Source: Parcubacteria group bacterium Gr01-1014_17 (GTDB lineage: Bacteria; Patescibacteriota; Minisyncoccia; Phycocordibacterales; UBA10002). From it: DNA of 64,000 bases. Below are positions 7,613-18,487 of the stretch, piece by piece. The stretch covers positions 300 to 64,299 of the forward strand of contig VMFZ01000004.1 in NCBI GenBank assembly GCA_007376285.1, in the 5' to 3' direction. Numbering within the stretch: position 1 is the stretch's first letter; every line of letters begins with the position of its first letter. A program made the position numbers and the translations under genes. A model generated the notes under the pieces. That model saw nothing but the letters and a program-made list of their open reading frames with translations. It made no database searches and was not told the DNA's origin.

Positions 7613-9922
7613 TTATTTATGCTTTTTTATCGTCTCAACAATGTCGTTTGTTTTCACCTTTTCCGCCAGCAAAAATTGAAACCGCTCACCGCTCAGTTCC
7701 GCCCATTTCTCGCCAAGTTCTTTTTTATAGTTCGTATCTTCCGAACCTTTCAGTTGTCCGCCTTTGTATTCAATTAAAAAGATATCTCCATTTTTTGTAC
7801 TTACCACGAAGTCGGCGAAAAATCGCGCCTTTTTCCAGCCGCTCAAACAGAAACCACTGTCTTTCGGATTTCGCACCCACCATTCAACATTTTCCAAATT
7901 ATCAATCTTTTTTATGAACTCAATCTCTTCTTTGTTTAAGTAGTCCGCTTTATCGTAGACGCACTTGCTGAACGGTTCGCGTGAAATACGCGCAAAAGAA
8001 AACTCTTGCGGGAAAACAAAACTCTCCCCATTTGATTTCAGCATCCCTTTTTTCTCTAAATCCACAAATCGCTTTCGCGCCACTTTCTCAATAATCGCAT
8101 CAAGCGCGACATCTAGTTTTTCTTTTAATTCATATCGCACGCGATTGAGCGTCTTAAGCGACACTCCTTCCTTTTGAAGCAACCCAGCCAGCACGCGCCC
8201 AACGAACGCTGACATTTCTTTCTGCGAAATAAACTCTCGTCTTACTTTCTTACAGAGCCACGCGATAAGCCGTTCAATGTTTTCTCCTCCCCATTCGTCA
8301 GACACAGTGTATGTCCCTAACTTTTCTCTTACCAACTCGCCTTTTCGGTTGAAATCAATTTCAATCATCTCGCTCGCGCCGCTACCGACAGAAAATCCTA
8401 TATCAGCCGCCACTCCCACAAGCAGAGGCGCGTTTCCGATAATATCTTCCACATAGTCAAGTTTCCTCCACACGCCGTTTTCTTTTTGCATATTAATATA
8501 CGGCAATTTTATCTCTTCGCGCACTTTCTTTTGCGCGATACCGCCTCCAAGTGCAACTCCACCGTCTTCAATTTCTATCTGCTCGTAGCCGTTTTTCTTG
8601 AGTGCTTCAATAACTGCATCCGCCGTTTTGGTAAAACTGTTTGTTGCACCGAACACATACGCTTTGTTAAGTTCCTCCGCCGCGTGCTCCCGAACATACG
8701 GCAAACGCATTACCCGCCCGATGGTTTGCTCCACCGAGAGCGCGGCGCCAAGATTGGAAACAGACACAAGAATATACGCAAAGGGACAGTCCCACCCCTC
8801 TTTAAGCGCATTGACGGTAATAATGTAACGAATCGGGCAGTCGCTCTTCAAGAGTTTTTCCCCATCCGGCAAGTCGTCATTTTTTGCCGTTTTAATCGCA
8901 ATTTCTCCTTCATCTATTCTCGCCTCATCAACCAGAAACTTCTTAATCTGCTGAACAAACACCCGTTTTTCGCTCTCTTTTTCTTGCTCCGCCTGTATGA
9001 GCATAATCGGGCGAATATATCCGGTTTTGTTTTTGTCTGCCGACTCTTCCAATTCTTTCCGTTTTTTTATGCCCGCCAAAATTGTCTCTTCCCACGGCGT
9101 TACATTCAGCAAACGAATCGGCATCTTTATCATCTTTTGCTTTTGCAATTCCCGCGCCTCTATTTCAAGTAAGATATTGCTCTCGGCGCGCGGCGTTGCC
9201 GTGAATTCAAGCACAAAAGATGGATTCAGCACTTGTATCGTCTCAAAAGACAAGTCCGCTCCGATATTGTGCCCCTCGTCCACCACCACAAATGGATTAT
9301 GCAAACGAATCACATTCGCCAAAGAAAAAACAACCTCGTTATTTTTGCTTTTTTGCAAAAGCGGAGCCACTCTTTCCGGCAAGTCCTCAAAATGCCCCAT
9401 CAGTTCTCCATTGCTCTGAAATACTTTCAGCGCGTCTCTCTGCTCCCGCCGAAACGCGCTCAAGGTTGAAACGACAATGCACACATTTTCCGCAATGTCG
9501 CTTTTCTTGATTGTTTTCGCTTCGCCTACATTAAACACCTTCACCTTCGCGTCAAATCGCGCGTCAATCGCGCTACGAATATCATTAGTGCGATTTTTGA
9601 GCACGCGAAGCGTTTGTTTCAGAATCGCGTCAGACGGCACAAACCACATAACTAAACCAGCATCCCCGCGCTCTTTCAGAAATGAGTCAAAAATAACACC
9701 AACGGAGTGCGCCGCGATGAGCGTTTTGCCTCCGCCGGTCGGCACTTTAATGCATACAATCGGCGCGTTGTTTTCGTCAGAAAAATCCTGATACTGCCGC
9801 TCCGAAACGCTTAATTTTCCAAACGCAAAACGCGCGCCGTCTTCCGGCGGATATTTTTTGCATTCCACTGCATACTCGCGCAGTTTATCCAGACAATCCT
9901 GTTGGTATTTTTTGAGTTGCAT
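7613..9922 (-). CDS. res: Type III restriction endonuclease Res subunit (SF2 helicase plus endonuclease)
   Basis: Walker A VPTGGGKTLIAAH and DEAH box VVVDEGHN; 769 aa. Its start overlaps the gene X stop in a TAATG arrangement. Confidence 0.85.
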   Translation of the reverse strand: MQLKKYQQDCLDKLREYAVECKKYPPEDGARFAFGKLSVSERQYQDFSDENNAPIVCIKVPTGGGKTLIAAHSVGVIFDSFLKERGDAGLVMWFVPSDAILKQTLRVLKNRTNDIRSAIDARFDAKVKVFNVGEAKTIKKSDIAENVCIVVSTLSAFRREQRDALKVFQSNGELMGHFEDLPERVAPLLQKSKNNEVVFSLANVIRLHNPFVVVDEGHNIGADLSFETIQVLNPSFVLEFTATPRAESNILLEIEARELQKQKMIKMPIRLLNVTPWEETILAGIKKRKELEESADKNKTGYIRPIMLIQAEQEKESEKRVFVQQIKKFLVDEARIDEGEIAIKTAKNDDLPDGEKLLKSDCPIRYIITVNALKEGWDCPFAYILVSVSNLGAALSVEQTIGRVMRLPYVREHAAEELNKAYVFGATNSFTKTADAVIEALKKNGYEQIEIEDGGVALGGGIAQKKVREEIKLPYINMQKENGVWRKLDYVEDIIGNAPLLVGVAADIGFSVGSGASEMIEIDFNRKGELVREKLGTYTVSDEWGGENIERLIAWLCKKVRREFISQKEMSAFVGRVLAGLLQKEGVSLKTLNRVRYELKEKLDVALDAIIEKVARKRFVDLEKKGMLKSNGESFVFPQEFSFARISREPFSKCVYDKADYLNKEEIEFIKKIDNLENVEWWVRNPKDSGFCLSGWKKARFFADFVVSTKNGDIFLIEYKGGQLKGSEDTNYKKELGEKWAELSGERFQFLLAEKVKTNDIVETIKKHK

Positions 9923-10755
9923 TATTGCTCTTTTTTTAGATCGTAATAATAGTTGCCAGCATAGGCAGAACCTATTGGGAAATTCTCAAATTCGCTTTCA
10001 GCTAATACTATCAGTGTTCGACTATTTTTTTCATATTTCATTAAGTAATAATGCTTTTCTTCGTCGCCTGTAGAATCTTTATAACCAATAACTAGATTTA
10101 TCAAATTTCCATCTTCCCTTAACCACAAGATATCCTCCTTATTCTCAAGATTCAATTCAATACTTCTGGATATTCCAGGTCCGATATCCCCCATCGTAGT
10201 AGGTACAAGCATTATCCCGCTTTGACCTGTTTCAGGAGCACGCACTTCTAAAGTCAAGAAGTGGCCTGGAACCGCTCTATATTCAAAAGCTTTTTGTCCC
10301 AAATCAGGACTATCTTCAAATTTTGCAAAAACAAAAAACACATCCTTAGCTACAGACTTTCCTGGATTCAAGAGCTTAAAATTTATAGTTGTGTTGCCGT
10401 CATAACTTATGGAATCCAAATTAATATAGGGTCTATTGGCTGCTTTGTACATCTCAACCCCCTGTATGAAAGAGGAGATTCCTACCGAAGCGGTTACTAA
10501 AGTCAGAAAGACCAATGCACAATTTAACCAAAATGTCCTTCTTTGATATTTAAGTAGGATATATTGCTCTATATAACGGGAAGATGGGTCAACATACCAA
10601 CTTGTAGTAGTGCCGTTTTTCTCAGATGTATTAGCGTAACTCTGTTCCTCCTTAGAAGCATGACGAAGAGCGTCAAACAATTCCTTATCTGAAGACTTTG
10701 GGTTGAGCAATTTTGCTACATTTTTACCTTTATTAAACAATTTCGGAATGTTCAT
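9922..10755 (-). CDS. uncharacterised single-pass membrane protein encoded between mod and res (gene X)
   Basis: 277 aa with one TM (FWLNCALVFLTLVTASVGISSF). It is very AT-rich and translationally coupled on both sides. I recognise no homolog. Confidence 0.6.
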   Translation of the reverse strand: MNIPKLFNKGKNVAKLLNPKSSDKELFDALRHASKEEQSYANTSEKNGTTTSWYVDPSSRYIEQYILLKYQRRTFWLNCALVFLTLVTASVGISSFIQGVEMYKAANRPYINLDSISYDGNTTINFKLLNPGKSVAKDVFFVFAKFEDSPDLGQKAFEYRAVPGHFLTLEVRAPETGQSGIMLVPTTMGDIGPGISRSIELNLENKEDILWLREDGNLINLVIGYKDSTGDEEKHYYLMKYEKNSRTLIVLAESEFENFPIGSAYAGNYYYDLKKEQ

Positions 10756-10756
10756 A

Positions 10757-12334
10757 TCAATATACCCTTACTTGGTAAGGGATTTGCTTAAAGGTGATAT
10801 TGTAATCATTCAAAATCTCCTCACTCAAAAGGCATTTATCCGCATAGACAACTTTTTCCTCGCCGTCTTTTTTCATACCTTTGAGCGCGGTGCGGTTCAA
10901 GATATTGTCGTCCTTCTGCTTGAATAAAAGATAGTATTCGGTGCCGCTATGCTCTCCGATAAACGCGCCTTTGATTTTCCGCTTATCAATATGTGAAAGC
11001 GTCTCGGTAAAATACACATAACTCGCCATTTCCTCAAACGACACTTTCTCGTTGATATTTCCGTCCGCCTTAAAAAGCGGTACGCCAAGTTCCGCGTACT
11101 CAAAATCCCCCTTTCCTAACTTTTTCGCTACGCGCCGCACTCGTTCTTGCGTAATCTCCCGCGCAATTTTCTTTTCCATTTCAACCAAAATAAACTTGCG
11201 ATCTCCGCCGTCTTCTTTATTCAATTCCATAACTGCATGCGCTGTTGTGCCGGAACCCGCAAAAGAATCAAGGATAAGAGAATTTTTATCACATGTTAGC
11301 TCAATTAAATACTCAATCAATTCTATTGGTTTTGAATAGTTAAAGACTGCTTCTCCGAAAATATCTTTCAACAGTCTATTTGACTGGGTGGTTGAATATT
11401 TTGAAATAACACCTATTGGCTGAATCAATCGGTCTATCAAGTTACCTTCGTTGTCACAATTTAAGTATTGTTTTGTGTACACAGCCCATTCATTGTTTTT
11501 ATCTTGTTTAATAACAACAAAATCATTTTTTGTTCCCCAAATCAATTTTTCTTTTCCCCATCTCCAACGGCTTATCTTTTTAGAATCCTTATTCGGATAA
11601 ATCAACTTACCATCGGGTGCTTTAATTGGATAGTCTAGGGATTTTACATAACCAAGACTTGCACTATCTAATTTTATTAGTTGATATTTACCTCTTGTTG
11701 AGACATACTTATCGGCCAATTTATAACGGTCTTCGTCTTCAACGGGTAAGCCGAATATTCTTGAATTTTTTATCTCTTTCGCATATACCAAAATATACTC
11801 GTGTTTTATTCTGAAAAAGTTACTGTCAGATTTTCCTCCTCCTTCTTTGTTTTCCCACACAATATTCGCAACAAAATTTTCCGAACCGAAAATATCGTCC
11901 ATAATCATTTTCAGGTTGCAGTGCTCGTTATCGTCAATGGAAATAAAAATTACGCCGTCGTCGCGAAGCAGTTGGTGGAGCAATTTCAAGCGCGGGTACA
12001 TCATACAGAGCCACTTGTCGTGTCGCGTTAAATCCTCGCCTTCGGGACCCACCACCTTTCCAAGCCATTCGCGGATGTGCCCGGAATTAACTCGGTCGTT
12101 ATACACCCACTTTTCATTGCCGGTGTTGTACGGCGGGTCAATGTAAATGCACTTCACTTTTCCGTAATAAAACGGCAGAAGTGCTTTCAACGCTTCAAGA
12201 TTATCCCCTTCCACGATTAAGTTCTCGCTATGCTCTCCGAGCGACAGCGATTTGTTTTTCCGAAGCAGGCGGAACGGCACCTCCTTATCGTGCCCCACCA
12301 CCTTATCTTTTCCTATCCATGTAAATAACGGCAT
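10757..12334 (-). CDS. mod: Type III R-M DNA methyltransferase Mod (beta-class N6A/N4C MTase)
   Basis: DPPY motif IYIDPPYNTG followed by FxGxG ILDSFAGSGTT. The start is taken at MPLFTW, 1 nt after the doc stop. Confidence 0.85.
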   Translation of the reverse strand: MPLFTWIGKDKVVGHDKEVPFRLLRKNKSLSLGEHSENLIVEGDNLEALKALLPFYYGKVKCIYIDPPYNTGNEKWVYNDRVNSGHIREWLGKVVGPEGEDLTRHDKWLCMMYPRLKLLHQLLRDDGVIFISIDDNEHCNLKMIMDDIFGSENFVANIVWENKEGGGKSDSNFFRIKHEYILVYAKEIKNSRIFGLPVEDEDRYKLADKYVSTRGKYQLIKLDSASLGYVKSLDYPIKAPDGKLIYPNKDSKKISRWRWGKEKLIWGTKNDFVVIKQDKNNEWAVYTKQYLNCDNEGNLIDRLIQPIGVISKYSTTQSNRLLKDIFGEAVFNYSKPIELIEYLIELTCDKNSLILDSFAGSGTTAHAVMELNKEDGGDRKFILVEMEKKIAREITQERVRRVAKKLGKGDFEYAELGVPLFKADGNINEKVSFEEMASYVYFTETLSHIDKRKIKGAFIGEHSGTEYYLLFKQKDDNILNRTALKGMKKDGEEKVVYADKCLLSEEILNDYNITFKQIPYQVRVY

Positions 12335-12335
12335 A

Positions 12336-12767
12336 TTATTTTTCAGATTCTTTAAAGTCCTCCATATAAAGACCGACAAACTTCTGTACTGCATCAACCG
12401 TTGCGTCTTTAACATGCGCATTACTCTCCGCAACCCACTTCGCAAAGTTATAGAGTTCTTGATTGCTCACCCGAAGCCATTTCTCATTCTTATACAAGAA
12501 ATATAGGAGCGTCGTAACTGCAATTCTCTTATTGCCATTCTGAAAAGGGTGATTCTTGATGAGAAAATAAAAAAGCACCGAGGACTTTTCAATAAGCCCT
12601 TGATACAGATATTTCTTGTCAAATTTCTGAAAGGGGGCGATAAGGCAACTTTCCAAAATGTTTGGATTTCGTGTTTTAAATTCCGGAATCGGCTCATTCC
12701 ATGTCATCCATTCTTTCGCCAGCGTGTGAGCGATATATTCAACTTCTGTAATAGAAATGGGTTTCAT
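12336..12767 (-). CDS. doc: Fic/Doc family toxin (death-on-curing)
   Basis: Fic motif HPFQNGNKRIAV; 143 aa. Confidence 0.85.
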   Translation of the reverse strand: MKPISITEVEYIAHTLAKEWMTWNEPIPEFKTRNPNILESCLIAPFQKFDKKYLYQGLIEKSSVLFYFLIKNHPFQNGNKRIAVTTLLYFLYKNEKWLRVSNQELYNFAKWVAESNAHVKDATVDAVQKFVGLYMEDFKESEK

Positions 12768-12769
12768 AA

Positions 12770-13039
12770 TTATTCCTTTCCAAGCAAACGAAGTGCTTCA
12801 CCATATTCTCTTATGGTTTTTGCGACAGACGCTTCAATATCGTTCTTTTTTTTGTCTGTTAATTCTCTGCCGAGTATTCGGTTGAGCTCATCGTACGCGA
12901 TAATGTAGTTCCTACCAACTTTTTGCGCTTTAATATCGCCACTTTGTATTTTATTAAATACAGCAGTTCGGCTTATACACAAGATTTTAGCCGCTTCCGT
13001 TGCAGATATATACTTTTGAGTTTTATTTTCCATAGTCAT
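12770..13039 (-). CDS. HTH (excisionase-like) DNA-binding protein, putative antitoxin partner of Doc
   Basis: ISATEAAKILCISRTAVFNKIQSGDIKAQKVGR HTH; its stop is 2 nt before the doc start. Confidence 0.55.
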   Translation of the reverse strand: MTMENKTQKYISATEAAKILCISRTAVFNKIQSGDIKAQKVGRNYIIAYDELNRILGRELTDKKKNDIEASVAKTIREYGEALRLLGKE

Positions 13040-13124
13040 ATTATAATCGTGTTAACTTAATAGTCAAGTGTGAACATATGTTAACTTGTGTATAACCGTA
13101 TTTACCGATACGACATACCGCCGC

Positions 13125-13817
13125 TTAAAGCAATCCTTTTTCCTTAAAACTCAAAAACTTATTTCCAGCCACGATAATATGATCCAGCACTTCTATTCCC
13201 ATAATCTTTCCCGCTTCAACGAGCCGCTTGGTTGTCTCTATGTCTTCCTTTGACGGCTCAGTATCGCCCGATGGGTGGTTGTGGGCAAAAATTACTGACG
13301 CGGCTTTATTTTTGATTGCCTCCGCGAACACCTCGCGAGGATGAACAACACTCGCATTGAGTGAGCCGATTGATACCTCCGCTATTGAGTGGTTTCTGCT
13401 GTTGAGGGCTATGCTGTAAAAATGCTCTTTGTGGTAGTCCTTGAGTTTACTTTTCACAAGCCGACATACTTTTTCGGGGTCAGTGAGTTCTTTGTTTTTG
13501 TATGACGGAGTTTGTGTAGACAATCGCCGTCCAATCTCAAAAACCGCTTTTATTTGCGTTGCTTTTGCTAATCCAATTCCTTTGATTAAAGACAATTCCT
13601 CAATGCTTGCCTCAGCTAATTTCTGCAAACTGCCGAATTGCGATAATAGTTTTTGTGCCGTTATGGAAACCGATTCGCCGGCAATACCGCGACCCAAAAT
13701 AACCTGCAATAATTCTTGCGCCGATAGCGCTTGCTCGCCAAACTCCACCAATCGTTCGCGCGGTCGCTCTTCTTTCGGTAAATCGCGAATCGTGAATGAC
13801 TTAATCATAGAATACAA
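13125..13817 (-). CDS. radC: RadC-like JAB/MPN domain protein
   Basis: JAMM motif HNHPSGDTEPSKED and a helix-hairpin-helix N-terminus. Confidence 0.85.
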   Translation of the reverse strand: MYSMIKSFTIRDLPKEERPRERLVEFGEQALSAQELLQVILGRGIAGESVSITAQKLLSQFGSLQKLAEASIEELSLIKGIGLAKATQIKAVFEIGRRLSTQTPSYKNKELTDPEKVCRLVKSKLKDYHKEHFYSIALNSRNHSIAEVSIGSLNASVVHPREVFAEAIKNKAASVIFAHNHPSGDTEPSKEDIETTKRLVEAGKIMGIEVLDHIIVAGNKFLSFKEKGLL

Positions 13818-13884
13818 TAAATCCTAGCATTTTTTGACACATAAAAACAGCCCCGCTTCGCTCGGGCTTCGGCAGTTACAAGCC

Positions 13885-13929
13885 CCCGCATTTCTTTATA
13901 CCAGTGTTTTGCAAAACACTAGTATAGAT
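13885..13929. repeat. repeat A copy 1 (palindrome ACCAGTGTTTTGCAAAACACTAGT) at the 3' end of the ArsR-like gene
   Basis: near-identical to 14201..14247; it encodes the C-terminal ILVFCKTLV of the regulator. Confidence 0.7.
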
Positions 13930-14168: not shown

Positions 14169-14200
14169 ATCTATTATTATACTACCACACATCCCACGTC

Positions 14201-14247
14201 CCCGCATTTCTTTATACTAGTGTTTTGCAAAACACTAGCATAGACAT
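14201..14247. repeat. repeat A copy 2, upstream operator candidate of the ArsR-like gene
   Basis: cccgcatttctttatactagtgttttgcaaaacactagcatagac. Confidence 0.7.
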
Positions 14248-14919: not shown

Positions 14920-15061
14920 TCATATTTTATTTCGGCCCGCACTTTTCACCCGACAAAAACAGCCATGCTTTGCTGAATCTACGCAGGACAAGCCGCCCAT
15001 CCGCCCGCTTTGAAACCCTCCAAAACTCTATGGAACCCTTCGCCCGAAGGGTCCCCTACAA

Positions 15062-15092
15062 AACATTCTCACTTTCTTAAGAATGTGAGAAT
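15062..15092. repeat. repeat B copy 1 (30-bp palindrome ACATTCTCACTTTCTTAAGAATGTGAGAATGT)
   Basis: three copies in the window (15062, 15682, 15990); this one overlaps the tag 3' end. Confidence 0.75.
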
Positions 15093-15670
15093 GTTTTTGT
15101 AATGTCGTTTTTACGGAAACACCGCTCCATATGGTCGTTCACCATCCCCACTGCCTGCATATGTGCATATAGCGTTGTAGGACCGAGAAATCGAAAACCG
15201 CGCGCTTTGAGGTCGTGCGCCCAGCGAATTGCCTCGTCGCTCGTCTGACGATAATCTTTGATTGTTTTAATTCTGTACTGAATTGGCGTACCGCCGACAA
15301 AACCCCACATATATTTTGAAAAATTACTAAATTCTTTCTGTATCTTCAGAAATCTTTTTGCATTGTTAATTGTCGCTTCTATTTTCGCGCGGTTGCGCAC
15401 AATACCGGCGTCGCCAAGAAGCCGCACCACATCTCGCTTTTCAAACGCTGCAATTTTCTTTGGGGAAAAATCCGCGAACATTTTTCTGAAATGCTCGCGC
15501 TTATGCAAAATCGTGCGCCAACTTAACCCCGCTTGAAAGATTTCCAATACCAAGAATTCAAAAATCTTTCGGTCTTCATAAAGCGGAACGCCCCATTCCG
15601 TGTCGTGATACTCCTTCATACGCGCATCATTCTCATCTACCCACGCGCATCGTTTTCTTTTTTCTTCCAT
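15077..15670 (-). CDS. tag: DNA-3-methyladenine glycosylase I
   Basis: EYHDTEWGVPLYEDRKIFEFLVLEIFQAGLSWRTIL is typical of Tag. Confidence 0.85.
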   Translation of the reverse strand: MEEKRKRCAWVDENDARMKEYHDTEWGVPLYEDRKIFEFLVLEIFQAGLSWRTILHKREHFRKMFADFSPKKIAAFEKRDVVRLLGDAGIVRNRAKIEATINNAKRFLKIQKEFSNFSKYMWGFVGGTPIQYRIKTIKDYRQTSDEAIRWAHDLKARGFRFLGPTTLYAHMQAVGMVNDHMERCFRKNDITKTFSHS

Positions 15671-15681
15671 ACAAGTACGAA

Positions 15682-15712
15682 ACATTCTCACATTCTTAAG
15701 AATGTGAGAATG
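15682..15712. repeat. repeat B copy 2
   Basis: aacattctcacattcttaagaatgtgagaatgtt; encodes the KTFSHS C-terminus of ArsR paralog 2. Confidence 0.75.
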
Positions 15713-15971
15713 TTTTTATGAGCTGTATCATACGGTGGCCGTACGGAGAAAGCGAGTGTGCCACTTCCCTGCCGCGATATTTCTTATCAACAAGTCCTGC
15801 ATACACGAGGCGGCGAGTATGTTCAGCAATCGTTTTCAGATTGCAGTCCAAATGCTCTGCTATGCCATCAAGCGAGACGCCCTCTGAAGTATGTATTAAG
15901 AAAAGTATCTGAAGGCGTCGATGGTTCGCGACTCCCTTAAAATGCCGTTCCAATTGTTTAGGTGTTTTCAT
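15696..15971 (-). CDS. ArsR-family HTH transcriptional regulator (paralog 2)
   Basis: ANHRRLQILFLI ... IAEHLDCNLKTIAEHTRRLVYAGLV; homologous to paralog 1. Confidence 0.7.
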   Translation of the reverse strand: MKTPKQLERHFKGVANHRRLQILFLIHTSEGVSLDGIAEHLDCNLKTIAEHTRRLVYAGLVDKKYRGREVAHSLSPYGHRMIQLIKTFSHS

Positions 15972-15989
15972 TCTTATTCATTATACTAG

Positions 15990-16020
15990 CACATTCTCAC
16001 TTTCTTAAGAAAGTGAGAAT
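15990..16020. repeat. repeat B copy 3, operator/promoter candidate between ArsR paralog 2 and typA
   Basis: acattctcactttcttaagaaagtgagaatgt. Confidence 0.7.
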
Positions 16021-16112
16021 GTTGTTATGCGGATATTCAATGTTTGCGTTCTTTTGCATTTTATCGTATTATGAATGTGAAATCGTGGCCGCGAGGCCAT
16101 TTTCATTTGTAT

Positions 16113-18031: not shown

Positions 18032-18487
18032 CTACTCAAAATACAATTCAATTTTGTCTTTGTCTTTCATTGGGTAGTCAAGCAGTTCGGCATTTTCTGT
18101 TCCGTTAACTGTCATGCGCGGAGTCGTGGTGCCGAAATCTTCCAACTGTTTATTCCACACCGCAAAGAAATCTGCCAGAGTGAAATCTCTCTGTTCGGGC
18201 GATTCAACATGTATCGTTCCGCTGGTATCGTGCGTGTGGAGCGCGTTCATGCAGATTCGTGTGACGCCGATATTGGCGGGAATCTCCACGCGCTTGCCGC
18301 TGGCGAAGATGGCAAGGTTCGGATGGATGTGAAATTGGGTCGCCATATCCGTGGTACAGGTAAGCGCTACCTCACGATTGGTCCGCGGCGTTGACGGCCC
18401 GGAAAATACTTTCGCTACGAATATACCTAATCCAACTACCGCCACAAGCACCCCTATTACGACAAATGTAAGTTTTGATTCCTGCAT
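18032..18487 (-). CDS. hypothetical membrane-anchored protein
   Basis: N-terminal TM, 151 aa, no recognised domain. Confidence 0.45.
   Translation of the reverse strand: MQESKLTFVVIGVLVAVVGLGIFVAKVFSGPSTPRTNREVALTCTTDMATQFHIHPNLAIFASGKRVEIPANIGVTRICMNALHTHDTSGTIHVESPEQRDFTLADFFAVWNKQLEDFGTTTPRMTVNGTENAELLDYPMKDKDKIELYFE

Follow-up and report, generated by a model that had tools for sequence, protein, structure and literature searches.

We have analyzed a stretch of 64,000 nucleotides (the window) from contig VMFZ01000004.1 of Parcubacteria group bacterium Gr01-1014_17, in which a Type III restriction-modification (R-M) operon begins with two short adjoining genes. The first encodes a helix-turn-helix (HTH) protein and the second a small protein of the Doc family, and together with their promoter we refer to them as the HTH-Doc cassette. 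A preliminary description of the window had proposed that these were a toxin and its partner, inserted directly upstream of and coupled to the Type III mod gene. The Doc motif HPFQNGNKR, the 2-nt gap before Doc, the 1-nt gap after it and the gene coordinates given there were all found on the minus strand, and the features of the locus are summarized in Table 1.

The cassette was compared with loci carrying relatives of this Doc, each denoted by L and a number. The family is large. It has more than 4,700 protein clusters, none of the best 120 falling below 63% identity, and a scan of one genome per species gave at least 545 confirmed relatives, nearly all in bins of the Candidate Phyla Radiation (CPR)/Patescibacteria. 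The counts of neighbors and operators given below cover the best 80 loci of several hundred or more Doc relatives, with genes called by a simple greedy open reading frame (ORF) picker. A sister genome, Candidatus Taylorbacteria (L081-L084), is syntenic with the window on both sides of the locus, and ratios of nonsynonymous to synonymous substitution (dN/dS) were calculated against it.

The Doc protein and its HTH partner

The Doc protein matches Pfam Fic (PF02661) with E = 7.8e-11 and 43.1 bits (cutoff 24), and NCBIfam TIGR01550 DOC_P1 with 54 bits (cutoff 38.65). The Pfam scan of the protein gave nothing beyond Fic. The active site of Doc-type proteins has the form H-x-F-x-(D/N)-(A/G)-N-K-R, where K replaces the second G of the canonical Fic motif. 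The K-containing pattern is present here as H73-P-F-Q-N-G-N-K-R81 at residues 73-81. In an alignment of 24 homologues, from which we also built a profile, H73, F75, N77, G78, N79, K80 and R81 are invariant and Q76 is the sole position of the motif that varies, so that the catalytic motif is intact, as had been supposed. Taken together, the profile and motif results place the protein in the Doc family. The profile of 24 homologues finds the 'Death-on-curing family protein' of PDB entry 9vzc with E = 1.1e-7, and the predicted secondary structure is all-helical. dN/dS = 0.09, indicating strong purifying selection. Doc also matches three PADLOC candidate-defence profiles (PDC-S23, PDC-S05 and PDC-M59B) with E values from 3e-19 to 5e-8.

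The partner is an HTH_17 protein, with 29.1 bits against PF12728 (cutoff 27) and 29.8 bits against TIGR01764 'excise' (cutoff 28.8). An AlphaFold2 (AF2) model with a predicted local distance difference test score (pLDDT) of 83 contains a winged HTH domain (residues 8-54) joined by a short linker to a helix of 27 residues (60-86). The best Foldseek matches of this model are Pukovnik Xis, RdfS, BmrR, BldC and RacA, which are winged-helix proteins of the MerR/excisionase type. These matches, together with those to HTH_17 and 'excise', show that the partner is not of the Phd/YefM family, and a test for membership of that family was negative. The C-terminal helix ends in a nearly invariant E76-Y77-G78-E79-x-L81-x-L83-L84-G85-x-E87, and the gene is under strong purifying selection with dN/dS = 0.05. 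On inspection by eye the protein lacks the class-I Fic inhibitory motif (S/T)xxxE(G/N), as expected for the partner of a Doc-type protein.

The two genes are found together almost without exception. In 79 of the 80 loci the gene immediately before Doc encodes an HTH homologue, and the lone exception is at a contig end. The gap between the genes has a median of 1 nt, and is 12 nt or less in 98.6% of cases. This is the conserved two-gene operon with a small upstream partner that is expected of a type II toxin-antitoxin (TA) system. We also considered the HTH protein as a classical C-protein of an R-M system, and rejected this; its fold is of the MerR/Xis type rather than Xre, and it travels with Doc in 79/80 loci when an R-M methyltransferase is near in only about 10/80.

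Table 1. Positions of the cassette, its control region and the neighboring genes in the window
Feature	Position	Strand	Description
RadC (JAB domain) gene	13817..13125	minus	Pfam RadC 8.3e-44; upstream flank of cassette
RadC-HTH intergenic region			85 nt
Cassette promoter and operators	13040..13087	minus	
16-bp palindrome GTTAACATATGTTCAC	13085..13070	minus	flanks -35 box
-35 TTGACT	13067..13062	minus	16-nt spacer
Third GTTAAC box	13056..13051	minus	between -35 and -10
-10 TATAAT	13045..13040	minus	
HTH_17 (excisionase/MerR-like winged-helix) gene	13039..12770	minus	89 aa as annotated
HTH-Doc gap			2 nt (HTH stop to Doc ATG)
Doc gene	12767..12336	minus	143 aa
Doc stop TAA	12338..12336	minus	1 nt (12335) before mod ATG 12334..12332
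Type III mod	12334..10757	minus	525 aa
ORF277	10755..9922	minus	277 aa; 1-nt gap from mod, 1-nt overlap with res
Type III res	9922..7613	minus	769 aa

The promoter and operators of the cassette

The best sigma-70-like promoter in a region of 7 kb, matching at 11 of 12 positions, immediately precedes the HTH gene. The sequence GTTAAC is repeated within it (Table 1), and this is also the commonest upstream hexamer of the related loci, where 61 of the 76 regions have it. At least two boxes of the GTTAAC type are present in 75 of the 80 loci, where they overlap the -35/-10 region, and the 16-bp type of palindrome is present in 54. The layout of promoter and operators recurs in this way even though the HTH proteins of the related loci are only 45-60% identical.

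Where the operator differs from GTTAAC, it retains dyad symmetry and follows the recognition helix of the HTH protein. Loci with GTTAAC have the helix SR[IVT]AV[F/Y]. Loci with GTTGTC/GACAAC have SRQAVL (4/4), those with GTTATC/GATAAC have AVL (3/3), and the three with CTTAAC/GTTAAG (L006, L010 and L051) have AVFQ. This covariation is the strongest non-experimental evidence that the HTH protein would bind these sites and autoregulate the cassette. On comparative evidence, then, the pair has both a DNA-binding putative antitoxin and operators in its own promoter, as a type II TA system should. The suggestion that the HTH protein is the dedicated partner and regulator of Doc is borne out to this extent, by its position in 79/80 loci, by the conserved operator promoter and by the covariation of operator and helix, all of which are comparisons of sequence. 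Together the constant pairing, the shared promoter and the tracking of operator by helix point to a discrete, autoregulated TA-like cassette of type II, about 750 bp in length.

GTTAAC is rare elsewhere in the window. There are three sites (13051-13056, 13080-13085 and 18104-18109), where shuffled sequences would lead one to expect 13.3 ± 4.0, and two of these sites are the operators of the cassette. Selection against stray repressor sites could account for the avoidance, as could an HpaI-like restriction activity that is present now or was in the past.

The position of the promoter bears on the start of the HTH protein. The -10 hexamer abuts the annotated ATG of the 89-aa form, and lies 6 nt from the ATG of Met3 at 13033. 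Close homologues are 87 aa long and begin MENK. In 41 of the 80 loci there is a -10-like hexamer 5-9 nt before the ATG, compared with 21% at control positions, and a motif resembling a Shine-Dalgarno sequence is found in only six loci, and not at the HTH gene of the window. The spacing of the -10, the MENK homologues and the scarcity of Shine-Dalgarno motifs suggest that the cassette mRNA is probably leaderless, and that the HTH protein probably starts at 13033 and has 87 aa. The 89-aa excisionase-like gene placed 2 nt before Doc is present as an ORF, and it is its start that probably requires correction.

Nucleotide homology defines the limits of the cassette. Similarity of the window to the distant loci L001, L002, L005, L009, L016 and L028 starts at 13084-13087, that is at the first operator box, and stops near the 3' end of Doc. 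The L001 cassette has 79-81% protein identity with that of the window and lies in another context, without RadC, mod or res.

Some contigs that carry the cassette, which is itself typical of CPR, are labelled otherwise in records of metagenome-assembled genomes, as Gammaproteobacteria, Pseudomonadales, Acidobacteriota, Planctomycetales, Bdellovibrionales, Candidatus Saccharicenans or Bathyarchaeia. These are L019, L027, L030, L035, L037-L040, L048, L050, L051, L058, L063, L066, L067 and L078. Either they are mis-binned CPR contigs or the cassette has been transferred more widely.

RadC flanks the cassette in the window. It adjoins the cassette also in L005 (7404-8078) and L060 (233-955), and in L042 and L077 it lies no more than a few kb away. 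The window, the sister genome and L060 share the order RadC-HTH-Doc-methyltransferase. RadC is near the cassette in several unrelated lineages, and a gene present in a single copy would be expected there less often.

The restriction-modification genes and the history of the locus

The product of mod is a full-length N6/N4 methyltransferase of the beta class, as expected for Type III. It aligns with the PADLOC profile MTase_III PDLC03644 (1.4e-161) over residues 1-524 and profile positions 1-541 of 542, matches Pfam N6_N4_Mtase (1.5e-41), and has DPPY and FAGSGTT motifs in its translation. The ORF list runs mod back to a TTG at 12445. Since the PADLOC profile aligns from its first position and homologues start MP(L/S)(F/L)(T/N)WIGK, the true start is the ATG at 12334. 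The res product matches Pfam ResIII (5e-16) and PADLOC REase_III (1.9e-89), both over the ATPase part, and contains the superfamily 2 helicase motifs GGGKT and DEGH. A D...ExK-like nuclease motif (FADFVV...FLIEYKG) was spotted by eye in the C-terminal part of the translation. With profile matches of this kind for Doc, the HTH protein, Mod and Res, their ORFs did not arise by chance. The catalytic motifs of Mod and Res are intact in the translations, and res lies downstream of mod as in other Type III systems. A search for simple-sequence repeats in mod and res found none, and so no sign of phase variation.

The ORF between mod and res is atypical. ORF277 has a predicted membrane segment, and has no match in Pfam, NCBIfam or PADLOC. 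A word-indexed search retrieved the protein itself alone; an exhaustive search gave 10 relatives among 1.84 billion representatives, the best with 47% identity. We considered ORF277 as a conserved accessory subunit of Type III systems and rejected this, given that it has 10 relatives and that the best of them is outside an R-M context. It looks like a cargo gene. In L005, where Mod is 57% identical to that of the window, the slot between mod and res (11514-12254) holds a DUF3800 gene instead. DUF3800 also lies directly after hsdM in L006 (5778-6569) and L069 (8941-9735). In these R-M operons of CPR, cargo genes seem to be accommodated just 3' of the methyltransferase gene.

The region from HTH through Doc, mod and ORF277 to res has a G + C content of 0.37-0.46, compared with about 0.50 on either side, in keeping with horizontal acquisition of the block. 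At the junction of Doc and mod there is no strong terminator and no credible promoter, and a single nucleotide leaves no room for one. The cassette promoter therefore probably drives at least part of the transcription of mod, ORF277 and res, which would share its autoregulation.

The close spacing at this junction had been thought noteworthy. In the related loci 35% of the gaps between neighbors on the same strand do not exceed 10 nt, and of 48 genes that follow Doc on its own strand 18 lie within this distance, so that spacing of this kind is the norm of these compact genomes. The gene 3' of Doc is on the opposite strand in 24 of 72 loci.

We examined the neighbors of the cassette across the 80 loci. 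With seeds drawn from the downstream neighbors, 10 loci have a DNA methyltransferase within 7 kb, and about 70 have none. Pfam families assigned to 72 immediate downstream neighbors include three N6_Mtase and two EcoRI-like methylases; the others are assorted housekeeping genes, among them PolA, DnaE, RecO, KsgA and YchF. In six loci the methyltransferase is immediately downstream on the same strand, as hsdM in L006 and L069, a Type IIG-like gene in L060, and an EcoRI-like gene in L080, L076 and L056. Among the 25 families listed for 71 immediate upstream neighbors there is no methyltransferase, and two of these neighbors are Type I HsdR, giving the order hsdR-HTH-Doc-hsdM in L006 and L069. 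The cassette is thus associated with R-M in a minority of loci, and the association is apparently directional. Association with Type III is rarer still, being confined to the lineage of the window, L005 (where two Type III systems flank HTH-Doc-RadC) and L039. The Doc-mod junction is real and is found also in the sister genome. Type III systems were otherwise placed near only two of the loci, and the idea that the pair is tied to Type III R-M does not hold, with about 70 of the 80 loci having no R-M methyltransferase within 7 kb and mostly housekeeping neighbors. The statement that Fic/Doc genes are companions of Type I R-M is sound; tvrAT is a documented case (PMC6265443), and L006 and L069 are examples within our survey.

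These neighbors could be read in another way, in which the HTH protein, possibly with Doc as co-repressor, mainly controls the downstream R-M or defence operon and Doc has little or no role in toxicity or addiction. The pair would then resemble C-proteins, RptR or TvrAT. Upstream of the five tightly packed genes there is a single strong promoter, which the operators overlap, and a cassette that is linked to R-M invariably either heads the operon or directly precedes the methyltransferase gene (L006, L069, L060, L080, L076, L056, the window and L082). The HTH_17 domain moreover matches the N-termini of PADLOC Type II methyltransferase profiles, and there are precedents for such a regulator in RptR (PMC12255303) and TvrAT (PMC6265443). 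Yet about 70 of the 80 loci have no R-M nearby and still keep HTH, Doc and operators, and in 24 of 72 the downstream gene is opposed to Doc. The catalytic motif of Doc is invariant and the protein under strong purifying selection, which is hard to explain for a mere co-repressor. We regard control of the R-M operon as the main function of the pair as unlikely.

The sister genome provides a view of the history of the site. A single block of homology, 88.5% identical over 1,588 nt (window 13851-12265), contains RadC, HTH, Doc and the start of mod. RadC is 93% identical and syntenic. The homology ends inside mod and returns beyond res, at window 7252-6614. Between these points the sister carries a different Type III system, with a Mod of 687 aa that is 35-43% identical in motif segments, a Res that is 28% identical and no ORF277. 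At its junction the Doc stop is followed by 1 nt, an ATG and 23 in-frame codons of the window type of mod. These belong to a remnant ORF of 28 codons (L081/L082 8434-8520), the stop of which overlaps the ATG of the new mod as ATGA. The remnant is best read as the recombination breakpoint of a swap of the R-M cassette. The most parsimonious course would be that HTH-Doc was joined to the window type of mod in the ancestor of both genomes, and that the R-M genes of the sister were then replaced by recombination with a breakpoint in the 5' end of mod. Insertion of the pair upstream of mod, as first proposed, is a poorer account of this history; the sister keeps the TA genes and 23 codons of mod, and it is the R-M system behind them that was replaced.

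The persistence of the Doc-mod junction through this replacement could be taken to mean, in line with the preliminary description, that HTH-Doc functions within the Type III system, serving as an abortive-infection or addiction back-up when a phage shuts off expression in the host or the R-M operon is lost. Several of the R-M-linked loci are indeed composite defence islands with Abi-type genes. L080 has AIPR and GmrSD, L078 a reverse transcriptase and GmrSD, and L060 an AAA_15/AAA_21 ATPase, and DUF3800 comes right after the methyltransferase in L005, L006 and L069. The matches of Doc to PDC-S23, PDC-S05 and PDC-M59B, and a Doc of a Treponema plasmid beside a LlaJI R-M system, are in keeping with this. 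Against it, only 10 of the 80 loci have the association, with Type III in the lineage of the window, L005 and L039 alone, and the cassette of L001 is 79% identical and has no adjacent R-M. An interchangeable R-M partner also speaks against co-adaptation. We consider a dedicated back-up role to be improbable.

The Treponema case is anecdotal, and is one of Doc and R-M together outside CPR. On plasmid pTS1 of Treponema saccharophilum (L085, 3723-4309) a distant Doc, 43% identical over 89 aa and preceded by a 67-aa ORF, is directly beside a LlaJI-type R-M system comprising dcm, an AAA ATPase and the LlaJI endonuclease.

The cassette as a proposed mobile toxin-antitoxin unit, and comparison with known systems

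The reading that we favor, at somewhat better than even likelihood, is that HTH-Doc is a self-contained type II TA-like cassette of about 750 bp that spreads horizontally in CPR/Patescibacteria, and that it came to head a Type III operon by clustering and compaction. In this scheme the operator-bearing promoter of the sigma-70 type would direct a probably leaderless mRNA encoding the 87-aa HTH protein and the 143-aa Doc. A dimer of the HTH protein would bind the palindrome GTTAAC-ATAT-GTTAAC and the additional GTTAAC box over the -35/-10 region, repressing its own synthesis, and helix 60-86 would likely be the element that contacts and neutralizes Doc. P1 Doc phosphorylates EF-Tu, and by analogy with it free Doc may arrest translation. 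The cassette forms the 5' end of the low-G + C block HTH-Doc-Mod-ORF277-Res that was probably acquired horizontally. The linkage of TA and R-M would then result from defence-island clustering and compaction of the genome rather than from an obligate partnership, which is argued against by the wide occurrence of the cassette away from R-M and by the interchangeable R-M partner. The cassette would act as a stable anchor with an exchangeable R-M system behind it, and stabilization of the island is the likeliest benefit.

Several observations weigh against this account. In mirror-tree analysis the C-terminal helix of the HTH protein correlates with Doc with r = 0.22 and the N-terminal domain with r = 0.41, so there is no signal specific to the helix, and the long helix could be a MerR-style dimerization helix only. 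The similarity of the Doc profile to P1 Doc (3k33) is marginal, with E = 0.42 across the motif. The AF2 model of Doc, made from 24 closely related sequences, had a pLDDT of 46.8 and was discarded with no fold search. With regard to mobility, a search of IMG/VR viral contigs gave no relatives of the cassette, and plasmid relatives are only distant, with less than 45% identity. The location of the methyltransferase, immediately downstream in six of about 73 loci and absent from the Pfam families listed for the immediate upstream genes, hints at a non-random and directional relation to R-M beyond coincidence. A random CPR gene is roughly expected to have a DNA methyltransferase as its next neighbor in well under 1% of cases, a rough estimate rather than a computed frequency. 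Lastly, TvrAT, the sole R-M-embedded Phd-Doc pair that has been studied experimentally, behaved as a regulator, repressing tvrR, and had no addiction behavior (PMC6265443).

The directional association raises a further possibility that combines control with killing. The cassette might be a portable 'controller plus killer' unit that CPR bacteria have captured repeatedly just 5' of methyltransferases from unrelated classes of R-M, namely Type I hsdM, Type IIG, EcoRI-like Type II and Type III mod. Its leaderless promoter, under control of the operators, would set the expression of the R-M genes, and loss of the operon or its silencing by a phage would lead Doc to arrest translation. We hold this to be a rather doubtful proposition. 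If true, the unit would be a general accessory module of R-M systems in a phylum that is largely without CRISPR.

The mobile TA-like cassette that we favor may be compared with characterized systems. Like Phd-Doc of P1 it has a small Doc-type toxin with a K-containing Fic motif, a tightly coupled upstream gene for the antitoxin, and palindromic operators in its own promoter. It differs in that the partner is a winged-helix HTH_17 protein of the MerR/excisionase type with a long helix rather than Phd/YefM, in its marginal similarity to the P1 toxin, and in being chromosomal in CPR bacteria. TvrAT, Phd-Doc orthologues within the SpnIV (tvr) Type I R-M locus of Streptococcus pneumoniae (PMC6265443), is likewise a Doc-family pair in an R-M operon, with an effect on neighboring genes that is observed there and proposed here. 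In TvrAT however the antitoxin is Phd-like, and the pair is set beside a recombinase in a Type I system, with hsdM/hsdS on one side and hsdR on the other. The present pair heads a Type III operon, and its family is mostly found away from R-M.

RptR is the first gene of the Type I R-M system-DarTG island of enteropathogenic Escherichia coli, and encodes a small dimeric repressor that binds three palindromes over the -10 and core promoter (PMC12255303). There too the first gene of an R-M operon is a small repressor with three short palindromes, and a TA module lies within the R-M locus. RptR is an unrelated four-helix protein, and DarTG lies between hsdS and hsdR; moreover regulation was established experimentally for RptR, where for the HTH protein it is suggested by comparison. 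TA modules in R-M loci and first-gene repressors of R-M islands are thus already known, and the Type III placement found here is specific to a lineage.

The partners of Fic/Doc listed by Makarova et al. (2009) are AbrB, Xre, PHD and YhfG, with truncated MerR found only with PIN (PMC2701414). A MerR/HTH_17 partner for Doc is absent from that list. Doc:PanA with its Phd-C element, and Phd itself, have a design in which a DNA-binding domain is followed by a linear neutralizing element (PMC10440598). The pair described here would resemble these and the PIN-truncated MerR pairs in having a known toxin fold with an exchanged DNA-binding scaffold, where a C-terminal neutralizing element is expected. 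Our search of the literature gave no direct description of a Doc antitoxin of the HTH_17/MerR type, or of Doc beside Type III R-M.

Doc aligns with the C-terminal approximately 100 residues (positions ~200-325) of the PDC-S23 profiles with E = 3e-19, and a plasmid match in tblastn is annotated as 'virulence protein RhuM/Fic/DOC family protein'. Proteins of that kind are encoded by single genes and have ~310-330 aa with an additional N-terminal region. The Doc of the window stands alone with its HTH partner, has 143 aa, and has Fic as its sole Pfam match, and on this basis we rejected its assignment as a RhuM/Fic/DOC-type protein of Type I R-M systems.

If the TA interpretation holds, the cassette represents a very abundant and uncharacterized TA family, largely of CPR/Patescibacteria, in which Doc is paired with an antitoxin of the MerR/excisionase type and the operator code is unusually well conserved. 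The family would be a clean system in which to study the co-evolution of repressor and operator, and a candidate source of a promoter and repressor part for organisms that cannot be cultured. As the swap of R-M systems behind a fixed TA anchor illustrates, it might also serve as a marker of exchangeable defence loci in CPR. The understanding of Type III R-M is unchanged, unless the minority, directional association with methyltransferases proves to be functional.

Beyond RadC the window contains two sets of repeats with internal palindromes. One of 42 nt (AACATTCTCAC...GTGAGAATGTT) occurs three times, at 15057-15098, 15676-15717 and 15985-16026, and one of 50 nt (ACTAGTGTTTTGCAAAACACTAGT) occurs twice, at 13879-13928 and 14195-14244. 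They flank two small genes for ArsR/MarR-like winged-helix proteins and a Tag-like glycosylase gene, and copies are present in the sister genome. These repeats may be operators or terminators.

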